From the NCBI GenBank assembly GCA_046328915.1, contig JAXLVR010000007.1, positions 157,206 through 221,205 of the forward strand: a stretch of DNA of 64,000 nucleotides. Direction: 5' to 3'. The notes under the pieces were generated by a model. That model saw only the letters and a list, made by a program, of their open reading frames with translations. It made no database searches and had not been told where the DNA came from. Positions 9,321 to 59,895 of the stretch are shown here, piece by piece (the stretch's first letter is position 1; each line of letters starts with the position of its first letter). This DNA comes from Anaerolineales bacterium. Lineage in GTDB: Bacteria; Chloroflexota; Anaerolineae; Anaerolineales; Villigracilaceae. A program made the position numbers and the translations under genes.

Positions 9321-10097
9321 TCATCCCTCCACAGTAGTGTCTTCGTTTACGGGGAGGTAATAAACCCGCGGTTTGGTTCCAAGGTTTTCGCGCAAGCGAT
9401 AGGACGGGTGGTCTTGCAAAAGCTGGCTCACATTGGAATTCGGGTCGTTCAAGTCACCAAAGATGCGGGCGCCGGTTGGGCAAGCAACTACACAAGCAGG
9501 GGTGGCGGCGGGGTCTTCACCGGGTTTGAGTCCCAGCGAAAGTCCGCGATCGATGCGTTGATAGCAGAAAGCACACTTCTCTGGCACACCGCGCGGACGG
9601 CGTTCCACTTCTGGTTCGCCATATTGCGGCACGTATGGGTTCTCACCATCAAACTTTTCCCAGTTGAAGGAGCGGGCATCGTAGGGGCAGGCTACCATGC
9701 AATAACGGCAACCGATGCATTTTTCATAGTCCATCATTACGATGCCATCATCACGATAGTAGCTGGCGCCCACCGGGCAGACTTCCACACAGGGTGCGTG
9801 TTCGCATTGCATACATGGACGCGGCAGATACACTTGCTTGCCATTCATTTCGCCCATATCCAGAACCTTGGTCCATTCCATATCTGGGTTGATGTCGTTG
9901 GTGGCATGGCATGCCATATTGCATTGATTGCAGCCCGTGCACTTGGATTGGTCAATGACCATTACCCATTGATGTTCACCTTTTGCGCCTTCAGAGGCTT
10001 TCACTTCTTGCGTGAGGAGGCGTGTTCCGGCAGCGGCAGCAATGCCTACCGCAGAAAGTTTGATGAAATCACGGCGGTTGAACTTATTTTGAGCCAT
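9321..10097 (-). CDS. 4Fe-4S ferredoxin-type iron-sulfur subunit, NrfC/PsrB-like, Tat-exported
   Basis: Twin-arginine signal NRRDFIKL and four Cys clusters (CTGCNQC...C, CxxCxxC...CP). Confidence 0.85.
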   Translation of the reverse strand: MAQNKFNRRDFIKLSAVGIAAAAGTRLLTQEVKASEGAKGEHQWVMVIDQSKCTGCNQCNMACHATNDINPDMEWTKVLDMGEMNGKQVYLPRPCMQCEHAPCVEVCPVGASYYRDDGIVMMDYEKCIGCRYCMVACPYDARSFNWEKFDGENPYVPQYGEPEVERRPRGVPEKCAFCYQRIDRGLSLGLKPGEDPAATPACVVACPTGARIFGDLNDPNSNVSQLLQDHPSYRLRENLGTKPRVYYLPVNEDTTVEG

Positions 10098-11076
10098 GGT
10101 GTACCTCAGCAGATTTCTTCAATACGAGGCGGTATCCGCGTTCGAGCCAGGGAGCCAGCAACATACCAGCTGCGATACCGATCAGCGCTGTGATACCTGC
10201 ATACCCAAGTGGGGAAACCGGAGCAGGGTTCGGTGAAACGATGGGAGATTGATCTACGATTGCAGCGGCAGGTTTCGGGGTTTCTGTGGGGGCAACGTTC
10301 GCAACAATAGCTTGTTCCGTCGCATCTGCCTGACCATCTGTATGCATTTGATTGGCATGGCATGAGTTACACGTGGTAATGCTTGCCTTGAAAGAGTGAT
10401 CCGCTACCTGGTGAACCGCTGCGTTACTTTCCACATGCTCAAGGTGACAATCGATACAAGTGACGCCTTGTTTGCTATGCGTGGAATATGGGAAGTTCAT
10501 GCTGGCTTCTTCATGACAACTAATACATAGTTGAGAAGCATCTGCAACCTTTTGTTCCTTAAGGTTGACGGTGATTTTCAAGGAAGCATTGTGCGGGTCA
10601 TGACAGGTTGTGCAGTCCATGCCAGCGGCGAAGTGGGTGCTTTCTTCCCATTCTTTCATACCAAAACGAGCATCGGTATGGCAGGTGCCGCAGGTGCCGC
10701 CGGTCGCATCCACGCTCATGGTGGTTTTGGGGTGGTCACCACCATCATCTACATGACAGGCTGTGCAGTACACGCCGTCTTTTTCCCAGGTACCGGTGTT
10801 TTCGTCGTATCCTGTCACATGGCAGGCGAGACAAGCGCTCGGTTTGCCTTGGTCGGTCCAATCTTTAACGAAGATTGGGTCGCTGGTAGCGTTCCCATGC
10901 GGACCGTTCTTCCAACTCATTTCAAATTCTTCATGGCAGTCTGCGCAGGTTTTTTCTTCGTCTCCCGTGGGCGTAGGGGGATTGGCATCCTGTGCGGAGG
11001 CGGTAAGAATGGAAACACCTGCAATTAGCAGGGAGACCATAAGGGCGAGGATGATTTTTTCAAAACGTGAGAACAT
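10084..11076 (-). CDS. Octaheme c-type cytochrome with C-terminal TM anchor
   Basis: N-terminal signal peptide, eight CxxCH motifs, and a C-terminal hydrophobic helix. Overlaps the NrfC-like gene by 14 nt. Confidence 0.85.
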   Translation of the reverse strand: MFSRFEKIILALMVSLLIAGVSILTASAQDANPPTPTGDEEKTCADCHEEFEMSWKNGPHGNATSDPIFVKDWTDQGKPSACLACHVTGYDENTGTWEKDGVYCTACHVDDGGDHPKTTMSVDATGGTCGTCHTDARFGMKEWEESTHFAAGMDCTTCHDPHNASLKITVNLKEQKVADASQLCISCHEEASMNFPYSTHSKQGVTCIDCHLEHVESNAAVHQVADHSFKASITTCNSCHANQMHTDGQADATEQAIVANVAPTETPKPAAAIVDQSPIVSPNPAPVSPLGYAGITALIGIAAGMLLAPWLERGYRLVLKKSAEVHHGSK

Positions 11077-41516: not shown

Positions 41517-44500
41517 ATGCTTAAGAACTTCGTAAAACTATTCAGTGGTGACCCCACAAAAAAGACTGTAGACCAATATCGCCCGCTCGTGGAGCAGGTC
41601 AATGCCTTGGAGGCGCAATTTTCGTCTCTGAGTGACGATGCTTTGCGCGCCAAGACGGACGAATTTAAGAAACGGATTGCCGACCTTACTGGGAATGTAG
41701 AAGGTTTGGAAGACAAAGAACGGATCAAAGCCGAACAAAACGCCCTGGAACAACTCATGCCCGAAGCTTTTGCCGCCGTGCGGGAAGCTTCAAAACGCAC
41801 CATTGGGCTTCGCCATTACGACGTGCAGATCATCGGCGGTGCGGCGTTACACAGCGGCTCCATCGCAGAAATGCGCACGGGTGAAGGGAAAACCCTTGTC
41901 GCCACCATGCCCGTCTATCTCAATTCCCTGCTTGGACGTGGCGTTCACCTCATTACAGTTAACGATTATCTGGCACGCCGCGATGCCCGTTGGATGGCGC
42001 CGATTTATCATGCCCTCGGCTTGAGTGTAGGCGTGTTGCAAATGGCAGCTGCCACCGAGAACGGCAAGAAAGCGTTTATCGTTGATTTTGAACGGGACGC
42101 CCCACAAGAAGATCAACGCCACCTACACCTCGTGGAGCGGGTCGAAGCCTATCGCGCCGACGTGACCTTTGGCACCAACTCCGAGTTTGGTTTCGATTAC
42201 CTGCGCGATAACATGGCAATGCGCTTGGATAACCGCGTCCAACGCGGGCATTACTTCGCTATGGTCGATGAAGTCGATAACGTCCTCATCGACGAAGCGC
42301 GTACTCCGCTTATCATTTCGGGTCCCGCCTCTGGTGATCTGGACTGGTATGGGCGTATGGCACAGATTGTGAAACAGCTCAAACCCGAAGATTTCGAAAT
42401 GGAAGAGAAATCTCGCAGCATTAACCTGACTGAGATCGGTGTAAGCCGTGTTGAAGCACTGTTGGGTGTGCAATTGCTCGACCCTGATCGCCCTGAAGAC
42501 CTCAACCCTGAGCAAGCTCGCCTCATGGGGTATTTGCAACAATCTCTGCGTGCACAATTTCTATTCACTCGCAACAAAGATTATTTGGTGCAGGGCGGCA
42601 AAGTCATCATCATCGACGAGTCGACGGGGCGTCTCATGCCTGGGCGGCGTTGGAGCGATGGTCTGCATCAAGCTGTGGAAGCCAAAGAAGGCGTAAAGGT
42701 CGAGCCGGAATCGGTCACCTATGCCACGGTCACATTGCAGAACTACTATCGCATGTACGAAAAGCTGGCAGGTATGACCGGTACCGCGCTGACCGAAGCC
42801 GAAGAGTTCAACAAAATTTACAAACTCGAAGTGGCGCCGATCTCGCCGAACCTTGAATATCTTTCGTACGGCAAAGAAGCCATACTCACTGAGATCAAAA
42901 CAAAAGATGAAGAAGGATATGCGTATTCCTACTTTGCCAAAGTAGGCGATACCAAGCCGCTTTTCTTCCGCCGTAAAGATTACCCTGATGTCATTTACCG
43001 TACAGTTGAAGCCAAGTTGCGTGCCATTGTGCAAGAGATCGTTCGCTACAATGCACTCGGACGTCCGTTACTTGTAGGTACCACCTCGGTCGAATCTTCA
43101 GAACGTCTCTCAAACCGCCTCAAAGCGGAACCGGTACGTCGTTTGATGCAATACTTCCTAGTGCGCGACCATTACATTCGCGCCAATAATATTGAAGAAG
43201 ACGGGCGCCTCATAGCGGACCTCGTGCCTTTTAACGAGCCCATTGAGAAAATCACTCCCGACGCCTTACGCGCCTTCATCAAACCCCACGGGCTGACCAA
43301 TATCAGCCTCGACGATGAAACCAACCTGCAAACCTTGCTCGATATTTTGCGTTTGCCCAGCGAAGCCAAAGACCGCTTGAAGAAGATCTTCCAAGGCGGC
43401 GTCTTGCATCAAGTCTTGAATGCACGTCGCCATACCGAAGAATCGCAGATCATTGCAGGTGCGGGTGCTTTTGGCGCAGTGACCATTGCCACCAACATGG
43501 CAGGTCGTGGTGTGGACATTAAACTCGGCGGCGAGTTGGCAGAAGAAGTCATCTCAGCGGTTAATCGTGTGTTGGGTAAAACCGGGTTGAAAGACCCATT
43601 TGATATGACTCACGACGAACGTAGAGCGGAGTTGAAGAAACTGGATTCATCAGCCTATGGTTTGTATGAAGCTGAGGTCAAGAACTTCCTACAATACTTT
43701 GATGATATGGAACGTGTGAAAGAATTGGGCGGCTTGCACGTTATTGGCTCCGAACGCCACGAAGCACGCCGTATTGACAACCAATTGCGCGGTCGTGCGG
43801 CTCGCCAAGGTGACCCTGGTTCTTCGCGTTTCTACCTTTCATTGGAAGATGACCTGATGCGTATTCAGGGCGGCGCGCAAGTCAGCGGATTGATGGAACG
43901 CCTCAAAGTGGACGATTCGCTGCCATTGGAAGCCCGTATTGTGGCAAGCGTGATCGAACAATCTCAACACCGTATTGAAGGCGCGAACTTTGACGTCCGC
44001 AAACATCTCTTAGAATACGATGATGTTTTGAACACGCAACGTCAGCAGATCTACTTGCAGCGCGACAAGATCTTCGTCAAAGAAGATTTAAGCGGTGATG
44101 TGGCAGAAATGCTTGATAACGAAGTGACCAAGCGTGTGGAAGTTGGCTTGGCGGATGAAGAAGGTCCGTGGCGTTTGTTGGCTTGGCTTGACCAGGTTCA
44201 ACCCGCTTTTGAATCAAAGAATGGGTTATTCCCTTCTTACGGGTTCAAGCTTTTGCTCGATCAAATTGATCCTTCTGATGTCCGCAATTCGACTTTGGAC
44301 CTCATTACGAAGTCTATTGAAGCCGAATACGCTCATGCCATGCGCGCCATTGAGACGATGATCGAAAAGACGGGCGAGACTCTCGAAACGCAAATCGCAG
44401 AACGAGAAGACAGCCTCGATGCTTTCTTCCAAACGTTGGGCGACCGTGATGATGCGCCTAAAGCGCAAAAGTTGGTGGAAGAGATCAACAGCCTGGCTCG

Positions 44501-45515
44501 CTTGGCAATTCGCCCGAGCAATGACTTGCTCAAGAAACTGTCAGATGACCCTGAAGATGCCAAGGAAGATATTCAGGAGATGGTCGCTAGTCAGTTGACC
44601 ATCATCAGTGCGACGCGTGTGATCGGTGCGATTCAGAACCGCATTGGTGAACAGATCCAATGGCAGAGCCCGCTCCCTTCAGATTGGGAGGATCTTTCTG
44701 AGATCTTACTGAACACTTCACGAGAAGCCTTTGATAAGAAGCGTGAACGCTTGAATGCTCAGGTGGCTCGCGACATTGATGTGTTGTTACAACGGGAAGA
44801 TGTCTCTACAGAAGCAGGCAGATTGCGTTTGTTAATCACCCTCTCGCAAGGTACACGCACCGCGTTCGACCAGAAGACTCATAAGCAGGTTAAACAGGTC
44901 TTTACCCGCTTTGCGTATGCATTCCGGGCGGCACAGTTGTTGGAAGGGCGTGAAGCGGAAGCCATTGCCGATGATGTGATGAACCACCTTGAAACGGCAG
45001 AAGAGTCCCTGCGCGAGACGTGGGGGCAGAGTGAGTTCGTGCGCTTGAGCCAGAACGCGACCAAACTCGCAGACTTTGGTCCGGCGGCGCGAATCGCTTT
45101 CGGCGAGGAAAAGCTGAGTAACGCTCCCGCCAGCCTGAGCGCGGATGAGGCGGCGCAGCTATCCTCTGCACTTGGAAAGTATGTGTTGAATGAAGTCCAT
45201 CGCCAGTTGTTATTAGGCGCGTTCAGCGAATTGTGGGTGGAATACCTGACCAAGGTTGAAGCCTTAAGAGTTTCGATAGGTCTTGAGGCTTACGCCCAAC
45301 GTGACCCGCTGGTACAATACAAACGCAGTGCATCGGAAATGTTCCAGCAATTGCTCGAAGATGTGCGTGGACTTGTGATCAGCCGGGCGTTTGCGGCACG
45401 ACCACGACGTGTGGAGATCACACCAATTGAGACCACAGAGACAGCTTCGACGCCGAATGAAACGTCGGTGCAAATTGGCGGTGATAGTAAAAAGAAGAAG
45501 CGCCGCCGCTCGTAA
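41517..45515 (+). CDS. secA: Preprotein translocase ATPase SecA (unusually long, 1332 aa, with large insertions)
   Basis: DEAD motor motifs (MRTGEGKTLVATMP, DEVD). Insertions lie in NBD1/NBD2, and there is a long C-terminal tail. Confidence 0.95.
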   Translation: MLKNFVKLFSGDPTKKTVDQYRPLVEQVNALEAQFSSLSDDALRAKTDEFKKRIADLTGNVEGLEDKERIKAEQNALEQLMPEAFAAVREASKRTIGLRHYDVQIIGGAALHSGSIAEMRTGEGKTLVATMPVYLNSLLGRGVHLITVNDYLARRDARWMAPIYHALGLSVGVLQMAAATENGKKAFIVDFERDAPQEDQRHLHLVERVEAYRADVTFGTNSEFGFDYLRDNMAMRLDNRVQRGHYFAMVDEVDNVLIDEARTPLIISGPASGDLDWYGRMAQIVKQLKPEDFEMEEKSRSINLTEIGVSRVEALLGVQLLDPDRPEDLNPEQARLMGYLQQSLRAQFLFTRNKDYLVQGGKVIIIDESTGRLMPGRRWSDGLHQAVEAKEGVKVEPESVTYATVTLQNYYRMYEKLAGMTGTALTEAEEFNKIYKLEVAPISPNLEYLSYGKEAILTEIKTKDEEGYAYSYFAKVGDTKPLFFRRKDYPDVIYRTVEAKLRAIVQEIVRYNALGRPLLVGTTSVESSERLSNRLKAEPVRRLMQYFLVRDHYIRANNIEEDGRLIADLVPFNEPIEKITPDALRAFIKPHGLTNISLDDETNLQTLLDILRLPSEAKDRLKKIFQGGVLHQVLNARRHTEESQIIAGAGAFGAVTIATNMAGRGVDIKLGGELAEEVISAVNRVLGKTGLKDPFDMTHDERRAELKKLDSSAYGLYEAEVKNFLQYFDDMERVKELGGLHVIGSERHEARRIDNQLRGRAARQGDPGSSRFYLSLEDDLMRIQGGAQVSGLMERLKVDDSLPLEARIVASVIEQSQHRIEGANFDVRKHLLEYDDVLNTQRQQIYLQRDKIFVKEDLSGDVAEMLDNEVTKRVEVGLADEEGPWRLLAWLDQVQPAFESKNGLFPSYGFKLLLDQIDPSDVRNSTLDLITKSIEAEYAHAMRAIETMIEKTGETLETQIAEREDSLDAFFQTLGDRDDAPKAQKLVEEINSLARLAIRPSNDLLKKLSDDPEDAKEDIQEMVASQLTIISATRVIGAIQNRIGEQIQWQSPLPSDWEDLSEILLNTSREAFDKKRERLNAQVARDIDVLLQREDVSTEAGRLRLLITLSQGTRTAFDQKTHKQVKQVFTRFAYAFRAAQLLEGREAEAIADDVMNHLETAEESLRETWGQSEFVRLSQNATKLADFGPAARIAFGEEKLSNAPASLSADEAAQLSSALGKYVLNEVHRQLLLGAFSELWVEYLTKVEALRVSIGLEAYAQRDPLVQYKRSASEMFQQLLEDVRGLVISRAFAARPRRVEITPIETTETASTPNETSVQIGGDSKKKKRRRS

Positions 45516-46779: not shown

Positions 46780-49476
<2,697 letters not shown>

Positions 49477-49491
49477 AAATAATTTGTACAA

Positions 49492-49530
49492 TGTCAAAAA
49501 GCGACCTGCTAAAAACAGGTCGCTTTTTGA
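49492..49530 (+). terminator. Rho-independent terminator after acnA
   Basis: Hairpin agcgacctg/caggtcgct followed by a T-run. Confidence 0.6.
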
Positions 49531-49568
49531 TTTTCACGAATATAATAAAAATCACCATGGAGAGAGAC

Positions 49569-51155
49569 ATGACTCAAAATATTTTTATCAGTTATTCGCG
49601 TCGCGAAGTGGGCTTTGTGGATAAGCTTGTTGATCATCTTGAGGAAGAGTCATTTAACGTCTGGCTGGATTATCGCAGCCTAGTGCCAGGGAAACCGTGG
49701 GAAGAACAGATCAATCAAGGCATTAGGCATTCAGATATCGTTCTGCTGGTTGTTTCAAAGGCATCCATTGCTTCTGATAATGTAGAGTTTGAATGGAGGC
49801 AGGTACTCAAAGAGGAAAAGAAACGTATTATCCTGCTTGTCTTTGAAGCCGTGGACCTGCCGCCTGAACTGGAGAAATACGAATGGGTGGATTTTCGAGG
49901 GAGTTACAAGCAAGCTCTGAAAGAATTGGACCATCAACTTAAGGTGCCCGAGCAGGAACAACATTCTGCGCCTGAGGCGGGCTTCAAGATGCCTGGCATT
50001 GTGTGGCTGGCTTTTTCCTTGAGCTTGATCGTTTCCATCATTTCCATCGCCGCCGTATGGACGATGTTCATTCCCTTTTTCCTAGTTCGATTACCGCTCG
50101 GTATTCTCAAACGCTCCTTCAACTATATGTTGGTGCAGGCATCTCTTATAATGCTGCCCTTTGCGCTTTTTCTGACAGTCAGTTTTTCCACTGATCCAGA
50201 TGTAATCGAAGTTGTTGACTTCCTAACCTATGCAAGTATTCCCTTTGTGATTGGGCTGATCTTCGTCCTACGTTCAGAAGGCATGCAACGCTGGGGGAAA
50301 CCCGAAGCCGTTGCACCGCCCTCGGTAAATAATAAAAAAACGACATACCCTGATTTTAAGCCAGCCTCTTTTTTTATAGATCATGCCCTACAAGACCAAA
50401 AAATTGCTGAACATACCCGAAATGTGTTTAAAGAAAGAGGGCATATCGAAGCGATAGATCCTGCTTCTGCGGATGCGGTATTTACCTTAGTCTCGCGCTT
50501 TAAAGGGGATAGCGTTGTAGATAGCCAGAAACAGGTGGTGTACCCGGTCATTATCCAATCCAACAACAAGATTTCAAGACAGTTATCCCGCGTTCAATGG
50601 CTTGACCTGCGGACTGGGGTGCGCAATCTGGATGTGGTTGCCCGGCTATTGCCAGAACCGGCGCGGCTCTTACGCAGCGTGGGCATCCGCCCGATGGGCA
50701 ATCAAGTAGTTTTGCCTGCTGTCATTATGTACCTGACCTATTTCCTTGCTTTCCTGGCAATTGTTTGCATTGGTAGTTGGCTTCCATATATCCTTCAATA
50801 CGCCAATGAGTTTATCTACGACCCGGATTTTACAGTTGTGATCGGTCAGTTGGCAATCAGCCTGATCTTGTTTGGCGGGCTGTCGTATCAAATGGTGAAA
50901 AATATTGTAGATCGAAAAGGCTTCTTCGCTTCTTTACTCGGTTTAGTCATTGGCATGCTTGTGCTGGGCGGCATCATCCTCTGGCAGATCGAGATCGACA
51001 ACATGGTCTTTGCACTATTGAACACGAATGTGGAATATCGCGGCTATTCTGCATACTATCCGCGCGCGATCTATATGGCGGGCAGTTTGGTGATGTCGAT
51101 CTATCTTTGGCTTAAGCGCCGTGATCTAATGTTCTGGTTTCCTGAGAAAAAATGA
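49569..51155 (+). CDS. TIR-domain polytopic membrane protein
   Basis: N-terminal TIR fold (IFISYSRRE...SDNVEFEWRQ) with SD ggagag before the ATG at 49569. Two blocks of TM helices are separated by a second degenerate TIR-like cytoplasmic domain. Confidence 0.7.
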   Translation: MTQNIFISYSRREVGFVDKLVDHLEEESFNVWLDYRSLVPGKPWEEQINQGIRHSDIVLLVVSKASIASDNVEFEWRQVLKEEKKRIILLVFEAVDLPPELEKYEWVDFRGSYKQALKELDHQLKVPEQEQHSAPEAGFKMPGIVWLAFSLSLIVSIISIAAVWTMFIPFFLVRLPLGILKRSFNYMLVQASLIMLPFALFLTVSFSTDPDVIEVVDFLTYASIPFVIGLIFVLRSEGMQRWGKPEAVAPPSVNNKKTTYPDFKPASFFIDHALQDQKIAEHTRNVFKERGHIEAIDPASADAVFTLVSRFKGDSVVDSQKQVVYPVIIQSNNKISRQLSRVQWLDLRTGVRNLDVVARLLPEPARLLRSVGIRPMGNQVVLPAVIMYLTYFLAFLAIVCIGSWLPYILQYANEFIYDPDFTVVIGQLAISLILFGGLSYQMVKNIVDRKGFFASLLGLVIGMLVLGGIILWQIEIDNMVFALLNTNVEYRGYSAYYPRAIYMAGSLVMSIYLWLKRRDLMFWFPEKK

Positions 51156-51167
51156 AAATATAAGTAA

Positions 51168-51207
51168 TGCAAAAGAGACCGGCAAATGCCGGTCTCTTTT
51201 TTTTAAA
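51168..51207. terminator. Bidirectional terminator between the TIR gene and the MerR gene
   Basis: Hairpin aaaagagaccggc/gccggtctctttt. Confidence 0.6.
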
Positions 51208-52024
51208 CCTTCTGAACCGGGAACTGTATCTCGTTGACCGTATTCGGGTCGTTCTGATCTTCCGGCTTTTCCGGCATCTTGAGGTTCAACTCGCGGCTCG
51301 GACCTACGATCTGATACCCGTTCACATCGATCCATTTGGCGAGGGCATCGTAGGCTTCACCGATGGTGGCAAACGACCCGGCGTGGACGACGCATGCCAT
51401 CGTCTCCACCGCTGGTAGGTCATAGATCTTGACCTGCCCGACCGGAGTAGGGTCACCGGCGATGGGCATGGCAACTTCAATGTCCCAATCGCCTTCACGC
51501 GCATCCGCATCATGATAGATCGCCATCGGCGTGCCATTCATGCGGATATTGTTCTGATAGATAAAGCCCAGTAGCTCATCCCAAAGCGAACGTTGGGCAG
51601 GTGGGTTGGCGACCACACCTCGTACTGTGGCGGCTTTCATTGCTTCGATCTTCTTTAATACAACATCATACTTGGACATAAAATTCTCCTGTTGAGTTTG
51701 TCTCAGCCAGCGTTCCACTTGTTCCAGCCTCGTCGTTTCTTCTTCCACCCGCTGCCGAATCTCTGCCTGACGCAGCTTCAGCATTCCACGCAGCTCTTCG
51801 GTGGAAAGATTCTCTTCAAGAAAACGCGCGATCTCCTCTAAAGAGAACCCCAATTCCTTCAATGCCAGAATGCGATACAAGCGCGGCAATTGGTGAAAGT
51901 CGTAATAACGATAGCCAGTGAAGCGGTCTACTTCGACAGGTTTCAGCAAACCCATCTCGTCGTAGTACCGCAACGTCTTAATGGAAACGCGGCTAAGTTT
52001 TGAAAAGTCTCCGATTCGGATCAT
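51203..52024 (-). CDS. MerR-family transcriptional regulator with a C-terminal GyrI-like effector domain (BmrR-like)
   Basis: N-terminal MerR HTH (IGDFSKLSRVSIKTLRYYDEMGLL), a coiled coil, and a GyrI-like domain. Confidence 0.85.
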   Translation of the reverse strand: MIRIGDFSKLSRVSIKTLRYYDEMGLLKPVEVDRFTGYRYYDFHQLPRLYRILALKELGFSLEEIARFLEENLSTEELRGMLKLRQAEIRQRVEEETTRLEQVERWLRQTQQENFMSKYDVVLKKIEAMKAATVRGVVANPPAQRSLWDELLGFIYQNNIRMNGTPMAIYHDADAREGDWDIEVAMPIAGDPTPVGQVKIYDLPAVETMACVVHAGSFATIGEAYDALAKWIDVNGYQIVGPSRELNLKMPEKPEDQNDPNTVNEIQFPVQKV

Positions 52025-52145
52025 ACGTTGGCGCCTTCATTCTCTTATACACTCTCCAGTTACGGGAGAGTCAAGGTTTGATTTCTAATCGTTTATTGAG
52101 CATTTTTATAACTTTCCCCAACTTTACTACTGGCGCGAGTTCAAC

Positions 52146-52781
52146 TCACACCAAGCCCTGCTTCCTTGCGATATCTGCCGCCTGGGTGCGGTTCTCTGCC
52201 TGAAGTTTGGCGAGAATATTTGAAACATGGTTCTTGACCGTGCCTTCGGTGATGAAGAGTTTCTCTGCCATGTCTTTGTTGGAGGCACCCTGTGCCAGCA
52301 AGACCAGAACTTCACGTTCCCGCTCCGAAAGCGACTCGATCGTCGAGGTCGTGGGGCGCATCATTTCGCGCAGGGCACGGGAGGCAATCTCAGGTTGAAT
52401 GAAGACTTCGCCTTCATACACACGCCGAATGGTTTGGATCAACGTGTCGGCAGGAGTATCTTTGAGCAGGTATCCCATGGCTCCCGCCCGCACGCCTTGA
52501 TAAACATAATCGTCCCGGTCGAAGGTGGTCAGGATGATGACCTTTGCCGTGCTCCATTCGCGGCATAGTTTCGCCGTCGCTTCCACGCCGTTGAGAATGG
52601 GCATTTGGACGTCCATCAGAATCACATCGGGGCGGAGTTCGAGGGCAAGTTGCACGCCTCGCTCTCCGTCACCGGCTTCGCCGATCACACGCAGACCGGG
52701 TTCAAGGTCAAGGATGGTTTTTAGACCCTGTCGCATGAGGGTCTGGTCTTCGATCAGGAGGAGTTTGATGAGATCAGGCAT
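52146..52781 (-). CDS. Response regulator, NarL family
   Basis: REC (LLIEDQTLMRQGL) plus LuxR HTH. Confidence 0.9.
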   Translation of the reverse strand: MPDLIKLLLIEDQTLMRQGLKTILDLEPGLRVIGEAGDGERGVQLALELRPDVILMDVQMPILNGVEATAKLCREWSTAKVIILTTFDRDDYVYQGVRAGAMGYLLKDTPADTLIQTIRRVYEGEVFIQPEIASRALREMMRPTTSTIESLSEREREVLVLLAQGASNKDMAEKLFITEGTVKNHVSNILAKLQAENRTQAADIARKQGLV

Positions 52782-52798
52782 GGTTGAGAAAAATTTAC

Positions 52799-54088
52799 CT
52801 AAAACAGAGGCAGGCTCACCCGTAGGTTCGAGCCGTTGTTATTCGCAAGAGTCAAAGTGCCACCCAAGCCTTCAACTCGTTCGCGCATCCCACGCAGACC
52901 GTAATGTCCGTTTTGATTCTCGGCATTGGGTGGAAATCCGCACCCATCATCATGGATCGTCAACAAAGCAGTGTGCGTTTCGATCTTCAACGTCAACGAC
53001 ACACGCCGCGCATCGGCATGACGCTCAACATTCGTTAGCGCTTCCTGCGCCGCACGCCACAGGGTTTCGGCATGGGCAAGTGGAAGGGCATTGGCATCCT
53101 CATCGGCATCACAATGGATTTCAAGATGCGCTCGCTGACCGACATCTACGCACAAGGTTTGCAACGCTTCACGCAGTTTGCGTTCTCCCAGCCCGGGCGC
53201 GCGCAAGCCTGCCAGTGAACGACGCAACTCGTCCATGCTGGCGCGGGTCAGGTCTTTCAATTCATCCACTTGAGCCGAAGCGCGTTCAGGGTCAACTTTA
53301 TACAGTCGTTGAATCGCTTCCAACTGAACCGATAATGCCACCAGCGAATGACCGAGACTATCATGCAGATCACGTGCGAGGCGCTCCCGCTCTCGTAACG
53401 TGGCGAGTTCCGCATCTCGTTGACGCGCCGCCTCCAACTCCTTTTGAGCGGTCTCCAGTTTCTGAATTAGCCCTGCCCGCTGACGACTCGTCCGCGCAAT
53501 GCCGAAGATGAACAGATAAAGCACATTACCCGCCAGCCACTGAAAGAAAAACCCAATCGCGGCACCAGAGTCGATTTCAGAAAAATTCCAATCTGAGATG
53601 ATAAGCGTGAGACAGATCATGATAAAGGCTGTCCCAGGGATCACCGCTTTCGGCGGCAACAACCCGAACATCTGCCCGAAATAGGCGAATGCCAGCCACC
53701 ATGTGGATGGATTCAACCAACTCGACAACAGCCACATTGCCAGCCCGCCAATGAAATACAGCGCCAGCCGCTGGTTAGACTTAATCCATCTCCCTCCGGC
53801 AATGGTGAAGAAATATAAAACGCCCTGCAAAATGCACAGTCCCGAAACAACATACTCACGCCAGGTGAGAACTTCGGCGGTAAGGATAGTGATTGCAGTG
53901 ACCCCGAAGATGAGCAGGGATACAACATCCCAAAACCTGCCATACATTTTCATGTAGCGGGCAGGCATGGGTAGGTTGCTATTTGAGAGGTCGGAAGCGT
54001 GAGACACGACGGTAGTGTACTCCGTATAAATGCGGATGTGTAGGGGCGAGGTCTTCTCGCCCCGCATCAGGGCGGGGAAACCCTGCAC
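52799..54088 (-). CDS. Sensor histidine kinase, HisKA_3 family (start uncertain; possibly GTG at 54088 or an internal Met)
   Basis: TM sensor region, H-box RERLARDLHDSLGHSL, and HATPase_c. Confidence 0.8.
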   Translation of the reverse strand: MQGFPALMRGEKTSPLHIRIYTEYTTVVSHASDLSNSNLPMPARYMKMYGRFWDVVSLLIFGVTAITILTAEVLTWREYVVSGLCILQGVLYFFTIAGGRWIKSNQRLALYFIGGLAMWLLSSWLNPSTWWLAFAYFGQMFGLLPPKAVIPGTAFIMICLTLIISDWNFSEIDSGAAIGFFFQWLAGNVLYLFIFGIARTSRQRAGLIQKLETAQKELEAARQRDAELATLRERERLARDLHDSLGHSLVALSVQLEAIQRLYKVDPERASAQVDELKDLTRASMDELRRSLAGLRAPGLGERKLREALQTLCVDVGQRAHLEIHCDADEDANALPLAHAETLWRAAQEALTNVERHADARRVSLTLKIETHTALLTIHDDGCGFPPNAENQNGHYGLRGMRERVEGLGGTLTLANNNGSNLRVSLPLF

Positions 54089-54101
54089 CTACAAAAAAAT
54101 A

Positions 54102-54830
54102 TTACGCTTTCGGTTCCCAGCGGAAAAGGCGCGAAGCGATCAAAGTGGCAACGAGACCATAGGCAGTCAGTAGCAGGATATACGTCAACCATTTTTCGTC
54201 GAGCGTGGCATCGAGTAAAGCCGAGCGGACTAATTGAACTGCCGGATAAGCAGGCAGGTAAGGCACGAAGTCTTTCACATTATCCGGCAGAGACGAGACC
54301 GGGAAGATCATGTCGCTGATGAACATCAGCAGAAAGTAGATCGTCATACCAACCGCTGTGGCGGTCCCTGCCTTGGGGGAGACGCCGCTGATAATGCCGC
54401 CCAGCGACATGAAGGTCAGCAAGCTCACGATGATCATGGGATATGCCAGGAAAAGGCTGGCTGCGCTGACCGGGACTTCATAAAAGACTGCACCCATCAC
54501 AAGGATCAATGTGCTTTGTATGACGCCAATCACAATATTGACCAGCAAGTAGGAAGTGATGAGTTGCCAGGCAGGCAGGGTGGTGGCTTGCAAACGGCGC
54601 AGGATGCTTTTCTCGCGCAATTCGAGCATCATGGTGGAGCTTCCGACCAGACCAAAGCTCAGGGCATTGAGCACGATCACGCCGGGGGTCATGTACTTCA
54701 TATATTGGCTCATAACTACCCCGTAGATCAACATCAACAATACCGGGAAGGCGAAGTTCCAGAATAATATGGCTCCATTCCTTAATTGAATGAGAGCAAG
54801 CGATTTGGTAAGAATGAGAAAGCGTTTCAT
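54102..54830 (-). CDS. ABC-2 type transporter permease
   Basis: 242 aa with a six-TM ABC-2 fold. Confidence 0.8.
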   Translation of the reverse strand: MKRFLILTKSLALIQLRNGAILFWNFAFPVLLMLIYGVVMSQYMKYMTPGVIVLNALSFGLVGSSTMMLELREKSILRRLQATTLPAWQLITSYLLVNIVIGVIQSTLILVMGAVFYEVPVSAASLFLAYPMIIVSLLTFMSLGGIISGVSPKAGTATAVGMTIYFLLMFISDMIFPVSSLPDNVKDFVPYLPAYPAVQLVRSALLDATLDEKWLTYILLLTAYGLVATLIASRLFRWEPKA

Positions 54831-54878
54831 GGGAGGATTCCTTATTTTTAAATCATCGAGTTTTTTCAGCGTAGGTTG

Positions 54879-55817
54879 TTATCCGATTTCAGATAACTGC
54901 CGACCTGTTAGTTTCAAGAAGACATCTTCGAGATTGGGCTGCCTCAGCATCACATCCCGGATCGAGCGCCCCGACTTTGCCGCCAATGCTTGCAAAGCGG
55001 ACATGGTCTCTTCAGGTTTGGAAGTTTCTACCTCAAGGTGCTGACCTGAATAACGGGCGCTGTTCACGTGAGGCAGATCACAGACCTGCTCAAGCGGCAG
55101 TTCTACAGTCGCTTTCAACGTCGCGTTCAGGTCGAGGCTGGCGATCAATGCAGTGGGCGTATCGCAAGCCACGATCTCGCCGCCGTCGATGATGGCGATG
55201 CGTCCGCACAGGGCTTCGGCTTCTTCCATGGCGTGCGTGGTCAACACGATCGTGCGTCCTTCATCATGCATTGCGCGGATCTCATTCCACACCGCGCGGC
55301 GTGCGTGCGGGTCTAATGCGGAGGTTGGCTCATCGAGTAGGATGATCTCAGGGTCGTTGGCAATGGCTACAGCAAGAGAGAGGCGTTGCTGCTGTCCACC
55401 CGAGAGGCGGCGGGCAAGAGTGTTTCGTTTCTCGAGCAGGTCAAACCGTTTAAGCAGGGTATCGATCTGTGCCTTGGTCAGAAAAACTTCATACAAGGCG
55501 GCATAGACCTCCACCAGTTCGGCAACGGTCAGATCATCAAGCAGGGCGGTCTTTTGCAATTGGATGCCCAACTGTTTCTTCGCAGACATGGGCTCGTGTT
55601 GCACATTGCTTCCGCCAACATGCACACTGCCCTGAAGCGGAGTGTGCAATCCCTCCACGCAAGCCAGCAGCGTGGATTTGCCCGCTCCGTTGGGTCCGAG
55701 CAAGCCGAATATCTCGCCCTTTTGTACCGATAAACTCACGCCGTTGAGGGCGGTCAGAGCACCGTAAGCGGCGGTCACATTTTCAATATCAATCACTAAA
55801 TTTTGAGACATAATCAA
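54879..55817 (-). CDS. ABC transporter ATP-binding protein
   Basis: Walker A GPNGAGKST, signature LSGGQQQR, and Walker B ILLDEPT. Confidence 0.9.
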   Translation of the reverse strand: MIMSQNLVIDIENVTAAYGALTALNGVSLSVQKGEIFGLLGPNGAGKSTLLACVEGLHTPLQGSVHVGGSNVQHEPMSAKKQLGIQLQKTALLDDLTVAELVEVYAALYEVFLTKAQIDTLLKRFDLLEKRNTLARRLSGGQQQRLSLAVAIANDPEIILLDEPTSALDPHARRAVWNEIRAMHDEGRTIVLTTHAMEEAEALCGRIAIIDGGEIVACDTPTALIASLDLNATLKATVELPLEQVCDLPHVNSARYSGQHLEVETSKPEETMSALQALAAKSGRSIRDVMLRQPNLEDVFLKLTGRQLSEIG

Positions 55818-55971
55818 CTCCTTTGTGCCTCCATCTTATGACAGCCCGCCTCATTACCCCAGTCTCGCAGGGAGGATTGGACCTATGCCAAAAGACATAT
55901 TCCCGCCTATGACCTCTTTCTGGGACTTTTGTCCCTGAGCGCTTTCGCTTCAATAAATCTATAATAGGGGC

Positions 55972-56517
55972 ATGGAACCAACTCGCTTCCCAGACTTCCC
56001 GCTTCTCTCTACCCCGCGCCTGCTTCTGCGTGACCTTCGCCCTTCCGACCTCGACGATTTGTATGAGTACGCCTCCGACCCTGAAATTGACCGTTACACC
56101 CCATGGGATCATTACAAGAATATCGACGAGGCTCGCGAAAATCTCAATGAATTTCTAGATGCATATGAAAAACATGGCTTTTGGGCATGGGGTATTGAAC
56201 ACCGTGCAGATAAAAAGCTGATCGGCATTATCAATATCAACAAACCGGGATATAACCGTAAGGTGGAGGTGGGCTATACCATTGCGCGAAAATACTGGGG
56301 GCAAGGACTCGCCACCGAAGCGCTTCAGGCGTTGATAAGGTATGGGTTCGAGAAACTGGACGTGGCGCGGGTCGAAGCGGTTATCCTTCCTGAAAACAAG
56401 GCGTCATCCAAAGTCCTGCTCAAAGCTGGTATGCAGTTTGAAGGTCTATTGCGTAGTTACCAGGTTTGGAAAGGCAAGCCTAGTGATCTGGAAATTTATG
56501 CGATCGTGAGGAAGTAA
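55972..56517 (+). CDS. GNAT-family N-acetyltransferase (RimJ/RimL-like)
   Basis: GNAT fold motifs (WGQGLATEA). Confidence 0.8.
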   Translation: MEPTRFPDFPLLSTPRLLLRDLRPSDLDDLYEYASDPEIDRYTPWDHYKNIDEARENLNEFLDAYEKHGFWAWGIEHRADKKLIGIININKPGYNRKVEVGYTIARKYWGQGLATEALQALIRYGFEKLDVARVEAVILPENKASSKVLLKAGMQFEGLLRSYQVWKGKPSDLEIYAIVRK

Positions 56518-57091: not shown

Positions 57092-59068
57092 TTACTCTTT
57101 CTTCTTATCGTCTTTCTTCTGCATATCTTTCAGAATCTTCTCGCGCATCGCTTCCACATCGGGCGAGCGTTGTGTGACTCCCGCTTCACCAGAGACACCA
57201 AAGCGCTCGGAGAGTAGCATCGTCAGCAAGCCTTCCATAATGTTGGAAGATTGGCTTCCGCCATTCTCGCCATTGCTGCCTCCCACCACTACACGCGGAA
57301 CCACGTCCACGCCGGATACTTGAATGGCTTCAGCAAAGCGATTGAGCACTTGCTGGGTCACCTGGAACTGCGGACCGCCATACGCGCGGACCTGTTCTTC
57401 GGTAGCGAGCGCTTGCGCGATACCCACGCGAGCGACCTTCTCCGCTTCCGCTTCTGCCAACGCGCGGATCTGCTGCGCCTGTTGAATGGAACGTTCGTAC
57501 TCCGCTTTACCTTGGTTCGACTGAATGGTGATGCTCAGCTCGGCTTCGGTCATCTTGCCCTGCATGGCAGCACGTGATTCCGCTTCACGCAGTTCACGTT
57601 CCTTGACCGCAGCTTTCTCTTGCTGTGAATAGGTCTCAACCTGTTCCTCTGCCACCTGGCGCTGACGTAACTGGGTCAGAATGGTCTCGATTTGTTTATC
57701 GCCAGCAGGGGAGGATGGCGTTCCGATCAGCACTTCTTCCAGTTCAAGATTGTAGTGCTCAAACTTAGTTTTCATCTCCAGGCTGGATTGCTGTTGAATG
57801 GCACTGCGTTCCTGCAAGAGTTGAATCAGGGTGCGAGTCTGTGCCACGTTCTTGAAGTACGCCGCCACCATCGGGTCGAGGGTTTGCTCTACCAGTTTCT
57901 TAATGTCGCCGAAGCGTTGAATGACGAGCGGAGCCTTCTTATAGTCGATATGCACTACCACCGAAAGCGGAAGTGTGGGTTCGAATGCATCCTTGGTGAT
58001 GAGCGCCACTTCGCTCAGATTCTCATCAAAGTTGTGTGAGCCGACTTCGTTCTTGATCCACTTCAAAATGAAGTTGGTGGTCGGCACAGGGATAACCTTG
58101 CCTGCATAAGTGTTGAACGGATACTTGCCCGGCAAGAGTGCTTCACTCCACACACCGCGCTGTCCGCGGGTAACCAATTCACCGTGTCGGTATTCCGAGC
58201 CGGAGAGGTCTGCCCCTTGCTCGCCTGTATAGGAAACAACCACACCCACATTGCCCACGTCAATGATGGTCTTTTGGATCATCTCAACGGTTGCAAACAA
58301 GCGGTTGACATAATAGGTGCCTTCGACCAACACCTGCAACTGGCGACCTCGCATACCGTTCGCTTTCAAGAAGCGGTCAGCATCTTGGAATTTGTTATGG
58401 TATTCATCTGCTTTTTCAGGGTTATCACCCACAACTGGAGCAATGATCTCACCTTGTGGCAAAGACGGACCGTCATGCACAGTCACAATACCGATCTTGT
58501 CATCGTTATCCTTGATAATGACCGGGCGGAACCCATCACGTTCTTTGATCACTTCTGCCATACGCACGATCACAGCGGTATCATCACGGCTGAGCGGCAG
58601 TGAGTACACACGCTCTTCAGTAATCACCACGAACTGCATCAGGTTGAAGGCATAGGTACCTTCGCGCAAAATTAAACGCTGTGGACCTTTCTGTCCGCCA
58701 TTTTTCAAGAAAGTACTTACATCCTGAAAATCATGTGCGCTTACATTTGAAGCCAACACTTGTGCTGGTTCAAGCGGAGCGCCATCACGCGCGAAAACAT
58801 ACCCGATCTTGCCCTGGGTAATGGTTACCAACGGCGCAATGTGAATAGCATATTGAACAGGCATGCGGTAATGAAGTCCACCACGCAACACCTGTGGCTG
58901 GAAACCCGTCTCGCCATTAAGCGCGATCAACCCGGATTTCAACGATTTTCCGCCGAAGCGTTTTTCCACAATACCGATGCGGTTGTTTGGGATAAAGCGA
59001 ATACCAGTTAGTAAGACCAAAAACAGAACGCCAAGCCCACCTATACATAACGTTACGAATATGTTCAT
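57092..59068 (-). CDS. Flotillin-like SPFH/band-7 protein with a long coiled-coil tail
   Basis: N-terminal TM helix, an SPFH domain, and EA-rich coiled-coil repeats. 658 aa. Confidence 0.8.
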   Translation of the reverse strand: MNIFVTLCIGGLGVLFLVLLTGIRFIPNNRIGIVEKRFGGKSLKSGLIALNGETGFQPQVLRGGLHYRMPVQYAIHIAPLVTITQGKIGYVFARDGAPLEPAQVLASNVSAHDFQDVSTFLKNGGQKGPQRLILREGTYAFNLMQFVVITEERVYSLPLSRDDTAVIVRMAEVIKERDGFRPVIIKDNDDKIGIVTVHDGPSLPQGEIIAPVVGDNPEKADEYHNKFQDADRFLKANGMRGRQLQVLVEGTYYVNRLFATVEMIQKTIIDVGNVGVVVSYTGEQGADLSGSEYRHGELVTRGQRGVWSEALLPGKYPFNTYAGKVIPVPTTNFILKWIKNEVGSHNFDENLSEVALITKDAFEPTLPLSVVVHIDYKKAPLVIQRFGDIKKLVEQTLDPMVAAYFKNVAQTRTLIQLLQERSAIQQQSSLEMKTKFEHYNLELEEVLIGTPSSPAGDKQIETILTQLRQRQVAEEQVETYSQQEKAAVKERELREAESRAAMQGKMTEAELSITIQSNQGKAEYERSIQQAQQIRALAEAEAEKVARVGIAQALATEEQVRAYGGPQFQVTQQVLNRFAEAIQVSGVDVVPRVVVGGSNGENGGSQSSNIMEGLLTMLLSERFGVSGEAGVTQRSPDVEAMREKILKDMQKKDDKKKE

Positions 59069-59121: not shown

Positions 59122-59895
59122 TTACGCTTGATTGCGCCCAAAGACTATCCCTGTGGAAATAATCACAAACAGAATGGAGACCACCAACACAAGGACGCCC
59201 AGTAGCCAGGAGCCCAAATAGATGGAGAGGAATCCGACCAGGATGACCATGGCAAGGAAAAGAATTTGTTTGAAGACATCTGCGCCTCGCAATACCGGAC
59301 CTTGGAACTGGTACACCCCATAGAGCCCGAGCCCCATTCCAAGCAGGCTAACCACTACCAAAACCCAGGTGATAACCACTCCCTTGACTGGGAGATTAAG
59401 AACATAGATGCCGCAGGTTGTTTCCCGGTCGGGGAAAGGATAAGAAGAATAGACAAGTGCCTTTGCGAAAATGAAGCGCTTTAAGTCCAAATTCTCAGGT
59501 CCAACCGCCCATTCGGCACTGGTTTGTTCTCCGGCAGCCAGCTCAAGGTTTTCAGTCGTTTCAAATGCTGCAACGGGGGAACTGGTTTCCACCAGAATTG
59601 TCGGAGAGATTTTGCCATCAGTTGTGTTTTTGAGTCTGAGCGATACTGTATTCGTCTCATTTGCCGTCATGAGCACCGGGCAACTAAATCCTTTTAACGG
59701 TGTGCTGGCACGGCGGGAAAACCCATAATACGCAGCTTCCAGATCTGCCCAAGTGGCAAGAGTGATGAGGATCAACCCGCTTATCACCCCAACTGCGAAT
59801 AAGATAAAGAATTGTTTGTATGATTTTGATTGAGTTTGCATGTAAATTCCTTTAAAGGTGCTGTTTATTCTATACCCTGTAGCTTGTTTTGCCAT
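59122..59895 (-). CDS. Membrane protein encoded upstream of flotillin (possible flotillin-associated partner; true start may be at the internal MQTQSK)
   Basis: N-terminal TM helix, a central soluble region, and a C-terminal TM bundle. Same strand as the flotillin gene. Confidence 0.5.
   Translation of the reverse strand: MAKQATGYRINSTFKGIYMQTQSKSYKQFFILFAVGVISGLILITLATWADLEAAYYGFSRRASTPLKGFSCPVLMTANETNTVSLRLKNTTDGKISPTILVETSSPVAAFETTENLELAAGEQTSAEWAVGPENLDLKRFIFAKALVYSSYPFPDRETTCGIYVLNLPVKGVVITWVLVVVSLLGMGLGLYGVYQFQGPVLRGADVFKQILFLAMVILVGFLSIYLGSWLLGVLVLVVSILFVIISTGIVFGRNQA

Follow-up and report, generated by a model that had tools for sequence, protein, structure and literature searches.

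A duplicated TIR-membrane protein in a variable chromosomal slot of Anaerolineales, a putative membrane-anchored NADase

What does a TIR domain do when it is built into a polytopic membrane protein that stands alone on the chromosome? Immune signalling in bacteria, plants and animals alike is built on the TIR domain as its enzymatic core, and the bacterial TIR systems known to us are either soluble proteins or multi-gene operons in well-studied phyla. We analysed a 64,000-nt stretch of DNA from an Anaerolineales bacterium (Chloroflexota, Villigracilaceae; assembly GCA_046328915.1, contig JAXLVR010000007.1, forward-strand positions 157,206 to 221,205), called the window below. At 49569-51155 it carries a gene that an original prediction, made from the letters alone, had read as a TIR-domain protein with a large membrane region, possibly a single-gene immune or signalling module. 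Coordinates are those of the window, and features lie on the plus strand unless stated otherwise. We favour, with a probability of about 0.45, the reading that the product is a putative autonomous membrane-anchored TIR NADase, which would be restrained by its eight transmembrane (TM) helices and a degenerate second TIR domain until a membrane cue arrives, and which may serve in conflict or abortive infection.

Architecture of the TIR-membrane protein

The N-terminal domain (residues 1-125; 49569-49943; cytoplasmic and predicted catalytic) matched the Pfam profile TIR_2 (PF13676) over residues 5-120 with 110.1 bits (cutoff 28, E=1.3e-31), covering profile positions 1-121 of 122. Its fold was the flavodoxin-like TIR fold and not a non-TIR flavodoxin-like one, as the original prediction had expected. 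Across the whole protein, the Pfam scan returned TIR families only, with no SAVED, STING or CARF sensor domain. A conserved glutamate at the NADase position had been placed in an SxxxEFEW context, and the glutamate is indeed there; the exact residue, which the prediction had missed, is E75 (codon 49791-49793) and not E73. E75 aligned with the Glu of the AbTIR motif NYEL, the catalytic glutamate of that enzyme, and it was invariant in 85 of 85 family members, while E73 was variable (51 of 85). R11, R12, D34, G41 (the BB-loop 'PG'), S63, S69, D108 and R110 were near-invariant as well. This first TIR copy is thus complete, with its BB-loop (LVPGxPW) and its catalytic-position Glu both retained. 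In bacterial, plant and SARM1 TIRs, the same Glu serves to cleave NAD+, and their active site needs BB-loop-mediated TIR-TIR assembly. Judged by its residues, the N-terminal TIR looks enzyme-competent.

Hydropathy and AlphaFold2 (AF2) models agreed on four plus four TM helices at roughly residues 141-235 and 380-515, matching the expected four or so helices after the TIR domain and a second bundle further on. The first bundle, TM1-TM4 (residues 141-235; 49989-50273), was delimited by hydropathy, AF2 helices, regional entropy and positive-inside counts, and its TM2 is proline-kinked and highly conserved (WTxFIPFxLxxLPxxIxKR). A juxtamembrane motif, LRSxxMQRWGKPEA (motif entropy 1.04), in which W242, G243 and A247 are nearly invariant, and a variable linker follow it (residues 236-264; 50274-50360). 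The second bundle, TM5-TM8 (residues 380-515; 50706-51113), was placed by hydropathy and by AF2 helices with predicted local distance difference test (pLDDT) scores of 85-96, and it leads into a basic cytoplasmic tail, KRRDLMFWFPEKK (51114-51152), with conserved W523 and P525. Counting lysines plus arginines gave 2, 3, 2, 3 and 5 for the predicted cytoplasmic loops, as opposed to 0, 0, 0 and 1 for the external ones. This asymmetry predicts an N-in topology in which the TIR domain, the middle domain between the bundles and the basic C-tail are all cytoplasmic. The predicted external loops are short, about 5-14 residues. Family-wide entropy was lowest in the cytoplasmic parts (about 1.0-1.5) and highest in three short predicted external loops (2.9-3.2), and few polar residues were conserved within the TM helices.

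The middle domain, with two helices (residues 265-377; 50361-50699), had been described from its FFIDHA, VFTLVS and YPVII segments as a second, degenerate TIR-like cytoplasmic domain. Against TIR_2, the window's own copy reached no more than 15.1 bits (E=0.034), a score without significance by itself. When the middle domains of seven relatives were scored in isolation, two passed the cutoff of 28, with 33.2 bits (over the whole profile, 1-122) and 30.1 bits; four others scored 21-26 bits, and one gave no TIR match. A family-specific TIR hidden Markov model produced a weak second match at the middle-domain position in 63 of 101 representatives. A profile of the middle domain found no meaningful match among PDB sequences. 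The domain nevertheless combines homology to TIR profiles with a TIR-like fold, and its identification, which upholds the earlier description, is carried by the relatives, the fold and profile-profile evidence rather than by the window's own Pfam score.

We then compared the two halves of the protein with each other by hhalign, using an alignment of 85 sequences. Half 1 (residues 1-250) aligned with half 2 (residues 262-528) with a probability of 91.5% (P=8.7e-7) over 199 co-linear columns. Strand A to strand E were matched (EWVDFRG versus QWIDFRxG), and the alignment continued through the next helix and the linker into the first TM helix, pairing TM1 with TM5. The juxtamembrane tails of the two bundles are also alike (LRSxxMQRWGKPEA versus the C-terminal KRxDLxxWFP). 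When TM1-4 and TM5-8 were aligned by themselves, the result was not significant (P=0.019 and 0.087), indicating that the duplication signal comes from the TIR domain, the linker and the first TM helix and not from the bundles as such. These results show an internal duplication of a TIR-4TM unit, (TIR-4TM)x2, in an inner-membrane protein.

Copy 2 lacks betaB, the BB-loop and alphaB (a gap of 17 residues in the hhalign alignment) and also the Glu-bearing alphaC (a gap of 9 residues). It therefore has neither the BB-loop nor the catalytic Glu helix of an enzymatic TIR and is called the pseudo-TIR here. Its near-invariant set is D276, H292, S309, P326, Q330, Q343, W344, D346 and R348. The ratio of nonsynonymous to synonymous substitution rates (dN/dS) was 0.08-0.10 for the whole gene and 0.06-0.15 across all regions; in the pseudo-TIR it was 0.06-0.10, a constraint as strong as that on copy 1.

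A phmmer search with the non-TIR part alone (residues 131-528) recovered just 125 clusters (50% identity) from 1.84 billion representatives, and nearly all of these matches began at about residue 130 of the matched protein. An N-terminal TIR_2 domain was present in 10 of 10 divergent or unusually long members tested. The two results together indicate that the fusion of TIR to membrane module is obligatory in this family. Relatives were encoded in 111 stretches from GTDB species representatives. Taxonomy was read from 80 of these, and they were almost all metagenome-assembled genomes (MAGs) of Anaerolineales, Anaerolineae or Chloroflexota, including several Candidatus (Ca.) Villigracilis species, with a few labelled Blastocatellia. 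Genomes held up to three dispersed copies: in Ca. V. vicinus they lie at three loci (L008, L061 and L082), and in Ca. V. affinis all three share an 88-kb contig. A literature search found no description of the duplicated TIR-4TM architecture, which is absence of evidence only. What sets the family apart is a TIR hard-wired to a polytopic membrane module, with the whole unit duplicated and an intact TIR beside a Glu-less pseudo-TIR. The hosts are filamentous, mostly uncultured Chloroflexota, in which immunity is almost uncharted.

A variable slot between acnA and lepA

Open reading frames (ORFs) were called and clustered in 87 loci, all chosen for carrying the TIR-TM gene. The recurrent order was secA-add-acnA-[TIR-TM]-(SPFH)-lepA-LPG-synthase-like-epimerase, and the window keeps this order with an added block of genes for a MerR regulator, a response regulator, a histidine kinase, an ABC-2 permease, an ABC ATPase and a GNAT protein. 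No neighbour cluster recurred as a partner in the 87 loci, and terminator-like hairpins stand on both sides of the gene, so the statement that it is alone between acnA and the MerR gene proved correct.

The gene that fills the slot varies far more than its surroundings. The slot genes fall into at least four deep clades in the tree. At AcnA identities of 85-89%, the slot protein was 46%, 59%, 64%, 72% or 75% identical to that of the window, and in one locus (L013) the flanks were 88-90% identical at the nucleotide level, versus only 68% for the TIR-TM gene. The slot holds zero to three copies, with tandem arrays of three in L010 and of two intact copies each in L013 and L078. A second copy in L056 was cut by the contig end, and apparent extra copies in L087 and L032 turned out to be only distant TIR matches. 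The third copy of the L010 array (9460-11049, on a 4.26-Mb chromosome assembly) is split into ORFs of 320 and 203 residues, and is either a decaying paralogue or the product of an assembly frameshift error.

Since these loci had been selected for TIR-TM presence, we also took an unbiased sample of five long contigs, picked through AcnA homologues and blind to the TIR-TM gene. The slot downstream of acnA was empty in three of the five (L088, AcnA 99% identical; L089, 98%; L091, 95%). It was occupied in the other two, with the same arrangement as in the window in L090 (AcnA 97%) and with a copy 46% identical in L092 (AcnA 90%, a complete 4.1-Mb chromosome). In a blastn comparison of L088 with the window, homology stopped at 49480 and restarted at 51171, and tblastn found no TIR-TM remnant in L088. 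These exact breakpoints and the lack of a remnant indicate a clean presence/absence polymorphism of a cassette of about 1.69 kb (49481-51170), made up of terminator, leader and gene. The site is thus an accessory hotspot, present or absent between core genes in close relatives. Synteny had suggested a core, vertically inherited, essential housekeeping gene, and the three empty slots ruled this out.

Comparison with Ca. Villigracilis vicinus (L008) revealed a mosaic. The tract 50650-51400, which comprises the final third of the TIR-TM gene together with the 3' end of the MerR gene, was 93-99% identical against a background of 85-90%, with a synonymous rate (dS) of 0.13 versus about 0.8, and the segment 50050-50500 (TM3-4 and linker) was only 74-79% identical. 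This pattern suggests recent recombination inside the TIR-TM gene. GC content was 0.45-0.49 in the cassette (49250-51250) versus 0.53-0.60 in acnA and 0.50-0.57 in the downstream regulators, which could reflect either an acquisition history or membrane-protein codon bias. The cassette belongs to a variable islet of Ca. Villigracilis-like Anaerolineales, and the results show that its family has been shaped by tandem duplication, by differential loss and by recombination, in a birth-and-death process at a fixed hotspot. The locus is a clean example of this process acting on a putative immune gene within a conserved housekeeping neighbourhood.

Possible function and rival explanations

The protein belongs to the TIR superfamily and not to Thoeris, CBASS, Pycsar or any PADLOC system. 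It shares Pfam family, fold, catalytic-position Glu and BB-loop 'PG' with the bacterial TIR_2 NADases (AbTIR/AbTir, PdTIR and TcpB-type), but these are soluble throughout, their N-termini being coiled coils or other soluble regions, whereas the window protein has eight TM helices and a degenerate second TIR. SARM1 is an animal TIR NADase, auto-inhibited by its own ARM and SAM domains in an octameric ring, but it has no polytopic membrane domain or pseudo-TIR. Canonical/degenerate TIR pairs are found in plant RPS4/RRS1 and in TLR1/2/6 as separate proteins, whereas the pair described here is covalent and arose with a 4-TM unit by internal duplication. TLR/IL-1R receptors consist of an ectodomain, a single TM helix and a C-terminal TIR; the window protein instead has an N-terminal cytoplasmic TIR, eight TM helices and no ectodomain. 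Unlike the TIR effectors of CBASS, Pycsar and type III CRISPR (TIR-SAVED, TIR-STING, Cat1), the gene is not accompanied by any signal-generating gene such as a cyclase or CRISPR gene; no nucleotide cyclase was found among its neighbours, and the protein itself carries no SAVED, STING or cNMP-binding sensor domain. Its TM region gave no profile match to SLATT or other known TM pore effectors.

Thoeris also pairs a TIR with a membrane-spanning module, and the window TIR is locally similar to ThsB models (PADLOC matches of about 60-90 residues, E=2e-7 to 0.02). The Thoeris family threshold was not reached, however, with 37 bits for NCBIfam ThcB4 against a cutoff of 220. Thoeris is an operon of two or more genes with a dedicated sensor (SLOG, Macro, SLATT and others), whereas the window encodes one polypeptide, with no adjacent ThsA-type effector carrying a signal-binding domain and no partner recurring in the 87 loci. 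Thoeris systems that pair a signalling TIR with TM effectors have been documented, and the same survey of TIR signalling lists TIR and TM effector as separate operon genes, with no such fusion (10.64898/2025.12.03.692087). Conflict systems of multicellular prokaryotes, where TIR-containing ones are reportedly enriched (PMC7159879), are the subject of two eLife surveys, neither of which describes such an architecture.

Under the favoured reading, the 8-TM bundle and the pseudo-TIR would hold the catalytic TIR monomeric or occupied in the resting state, for example with its BB-loop docked on the conserved QWxDxRxG strand-E surface of the pseudo-TIR. A cue at the level of the membrane, such as phage entry or lysis proteins or a loss of membrane potential, would cause lateral oligomerisation, in which the catalytic TIRs meet and form an inter-subunit active site. 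NAD+ would then be depleted, or turned into a signal of the cyclic ADP-ribose (cADPR) type, and the infected cell would stop growing. Such a switch might be used for phage defence by abortive infection, or for controlled cell death within the filament. The invariant Glu and BB-loop, the lack of a partner gene, the presence/absence pattern, the replacement of one clade by another and the recombination all make a self-contained conflict or cell-suicide module a better fit than a housekeeping regulator. Should the protein prove to be such an NADase switch, a single gene would make up a compact system with a trigger necessarily read at the membrane, and the restraint of TIR assembly could be studied on a natural canonical/degenerate TIR pair.

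Several results weigh against this reading, which leaves an immune role plausible but unproven. The closest solved sequences are the TIRs of TLR1/2/6/15 (E about 1e-6), which keep the same Glu, and TLR TIRs act as scaffolds, not as NADases. Since such scaffold TIRs share the residue, E75 is necessary for NADase activity but no proof of it, a point that the original prediction overlooked, as it did the internal duplication. PADLOC and NCBIfam models gave only local TIR-domain matches to the protein, far under system cutoffs. The PADLOC scan with 10 kb of context on either side, which had been proposed as a check, yielded no defence system or defence neighbour; the ten neighbours in this range showed only generic overlaps with HTH and ABC-ATPase models. 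The recurrent neighbours in the 87 loci are all housekeeping genes (secA, add, acnA, lepA, SPFH, LPG-synthase-like and miaB-like). Searches of IMG/VR, GenBank phages and PLSDB plasmids, collections that probably represent Chloroflexota elements poorly, returned no relatives, and the gene thus lies in no defence island and on no mobile element that we could detect. Any useful membrane protein could show strong purifying selection and deep clades, and the short external loops (7-12 residues) leave scant surface for ligand recognition. The trigger and the contact between TIR and pseudo-TIR are pure inference.

The protein might instead serve lineage-specific, non-immune membrane signalling or scaffolding, with its TIRs acting as interaction modules or as makers of NAD-derived messengers that regulate envelope, lipid or filament physiology. 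This is unlikely but a serious contender. It would explain the conserved position amid housekeeping and envelope genes (acnA, SPFH/flotillin, lepA, LPG-synthase-like and epimerase) despite a TIR-TM identity of only 44-75%, the lack of defence neighbours and of mobile-element carriage, the strong purifying selection in every region, the scaffold-type TLR TIRs as closest solved sequences and the near-confinement of the family to one order. It sits poorly with a dispensable gene that three of the five close relatives cleanly lack, among them the one whose AcnA is 99% identical; zero to three copies per slot and deep paralogue clades swapping with each other are also unusual for a housekeeping regulator, and the invariant Glu, BB-loop and RR motif point to catalysis over mere scaffolding. 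If this explanation were true, the protein would be among the few hints of a non-immune use of bacterial TIRs. A relic, or a non-functional or mis-called ORF, is hardly credible. In its favour are a member of the L010 array that is broken into two ORFs and the dispensability of the gene in relatives, but dN/dS is about 0.1 in each region, more than 120 homologues are intact and full-length, and a ribosome-binding site, flanking terminators and confident AF2 models are present; the number of homologues and the dN/dS effectively exclude this explanation.

Two further alternatives keep a conflict role and change the mechanism. The protein could be a Thoeris system in one polypeptide, in which the TIR makes a cADPR-type or ADP-ribose-conjugate signal, the pseudo-TIR senses it and the 8-TM module opens or oligomerises into a pore, so that the cell would die by depolarisation and not by NAD+ loss. 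The strong constraint on the pseudo-TIR (dN/dS 0.06-0.10), its near-invariant polar set (D276, H292, S309, Q330, Q343, W344, D346, R348), as expected for a ligand pocket, the documented Thoeris systems with a TIR and a TM effector (10.64898/2025.12.03.692087) and the obligatory TIR-membrane fusion in the family all speak for it. The TM helices hold few conserved polar residues, however, which argues against a defined channel, and with producer and sensor joined in one covalent chain the infection-sensing step stays unexplained; we regard this mechanism as quite unlikely. A long shot of wider reach is an entire immune or cell-death circuit contained in a single chain, a fused producer-sensor-pore running from the signal of the catalytic TIR through the pseudo-TIR as reader to the protein's own 8-TM gate and diversified by birth-and-death at a fixed hotspot in multicellular Chloroflexota. 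If this were true, the TIR fold would have been turned into a receptor that recognises TIR products, and the locus would be a bacterial analogue of tandem immune-receptor gene clusters. The remaining alternative, which we consider very unlikely, is a polymorphic receptor for kin recognition or programmed cell death in filamentous Chloroflexota, whose paralogues, differing in external loops and TM surfaces, would sense neighbours or membrane cues and cause TIR-dependent death of non-kin or damaged cells. Hypervariable external loops against conserved cytoplasmic machinery, several divergent paralogues per genome with allelic-type replacement at one locus, hosts that are filamentous Anaerolineales (Ca. 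Villigracilis) and the enrichment of TIR conflict systems in multicellular prokaryotes (PMC7159879) agree with it. However, typical recognition domains need more than the 7-12 residues of the external loops, there is no linked gene for a partner ligand, region-level dN/dS shows no positive selection and many close relatives have no slot copy.

Gene limits, flanking signals and further observations

The ORF is open from 49491 to 51155, and the ATG at 49569 is its likely start, giving a coding sequence at 49569-51155 (stop included) for the 528-residue (TIR-4TM)x2 protein, consistent with the homologues and the whole-gene dN/dS. The originally assumed start was supported by a Shine-Dalgarno-like GGAGAG 6 nt upstream (49559-49564), read directly from the sequence, and by more than 120 full-length homologues of about 528-540 residues that share this Met as start. 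RNA folding revealed an intrinsic-terminator-like hairpin at 49496-49534, with an GCGACCTG/CAGGTCGC stem and A/U pairs followed by a T-run (-24.7 kcal/mol, z=-7.95, equalled by 0 of 200 shuffles). It looks like the end of acnA and the left edge of the TIR-TM cassette, and it falls inside the cassette missing from L088. The longer ORF would have to read through this hairpin, which favours the start at 49569.

A second, bidirectional terminator-like hairpin (51171-51204, both strands; z=-6.86 on the plus and -6.47 on the minus strand) forms the right edge of the cassette. It separates the stop codons of the TIR-TM gene and the convergent MerR/GyrI-like gene, and the same hairpin stands directly 3' of acnA in L088. 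Strong hairpins on both sides indicate that the TIR-TM gene is a monocistronic unit. A consensus scan of 49300-51400 for terminators and promoters missed both hairpins, and in the interval from the acnA terminator to the start codon it found no convincing sigma-70-type promoter, the best candidate being TTGATT...TATAAT at 49527-49546 with a spacer of just 8 nt.

Several further members of the family are worth recording. Full-length copies occur on MAG contigs labelled Blastocatellia/Blastocatellales (Acidobacteriota), namely L073 (a 354-kb contig), L030, L055 and L057; in the tree, these copies group with L059 and L060 from Anaerolineales and reflect either inter-phylum transfer or mis-binning. 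One 841-residue protein (P0193) has nine RHS repeats and DUF7948 after a TIR_2 domain and the beginning of the membrane module, and is either a polymorphic-toxin-like chimera or an assembly artefact. A distant paralogue with 49% identity (L001, 12166-13884) lies directly 5' of AbiEii-family fragments, the sole hint of a toxin-antitoxin or defence neighbour across the loci.

Downstream of the TIR-TM gene, the block 52076-55993 encodes a LuxR-type response regulator, a HisKA_3 histidine kinase, an ABC-2 permease and an ABC ATPase, and is a second indel relative to L088 and L089. Judged by its domains, it resembles a stress or antimicrobial sensing-and-export module, and it occupies one variable islet with the TIR-TM gene. 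Further on, the minus strand encodes a 658-residue SPFH/Band-7 flotillin-like protein (57092-59068) and a small polytopic membrane protein without a Pfam match (59122-59895). These two genes often flank TIR-TM genes in the acnA-lepA slot (cluster c6 in 15 loci, c10 in 7), but both are retained in L088, which has no TIR-TM gene, so they are probably mere co-residents of the islet.

The AcnA of the window is 100% identical to that of an NCBI MAG named 'Anaerolineales bacterium'. The SecA encoded at 41517-45515 has 1332 residues, several hundred more than a typical bacterial SecA of about 900, and its orthologues in L088-L092 are of similar length (1331-1339 residues).

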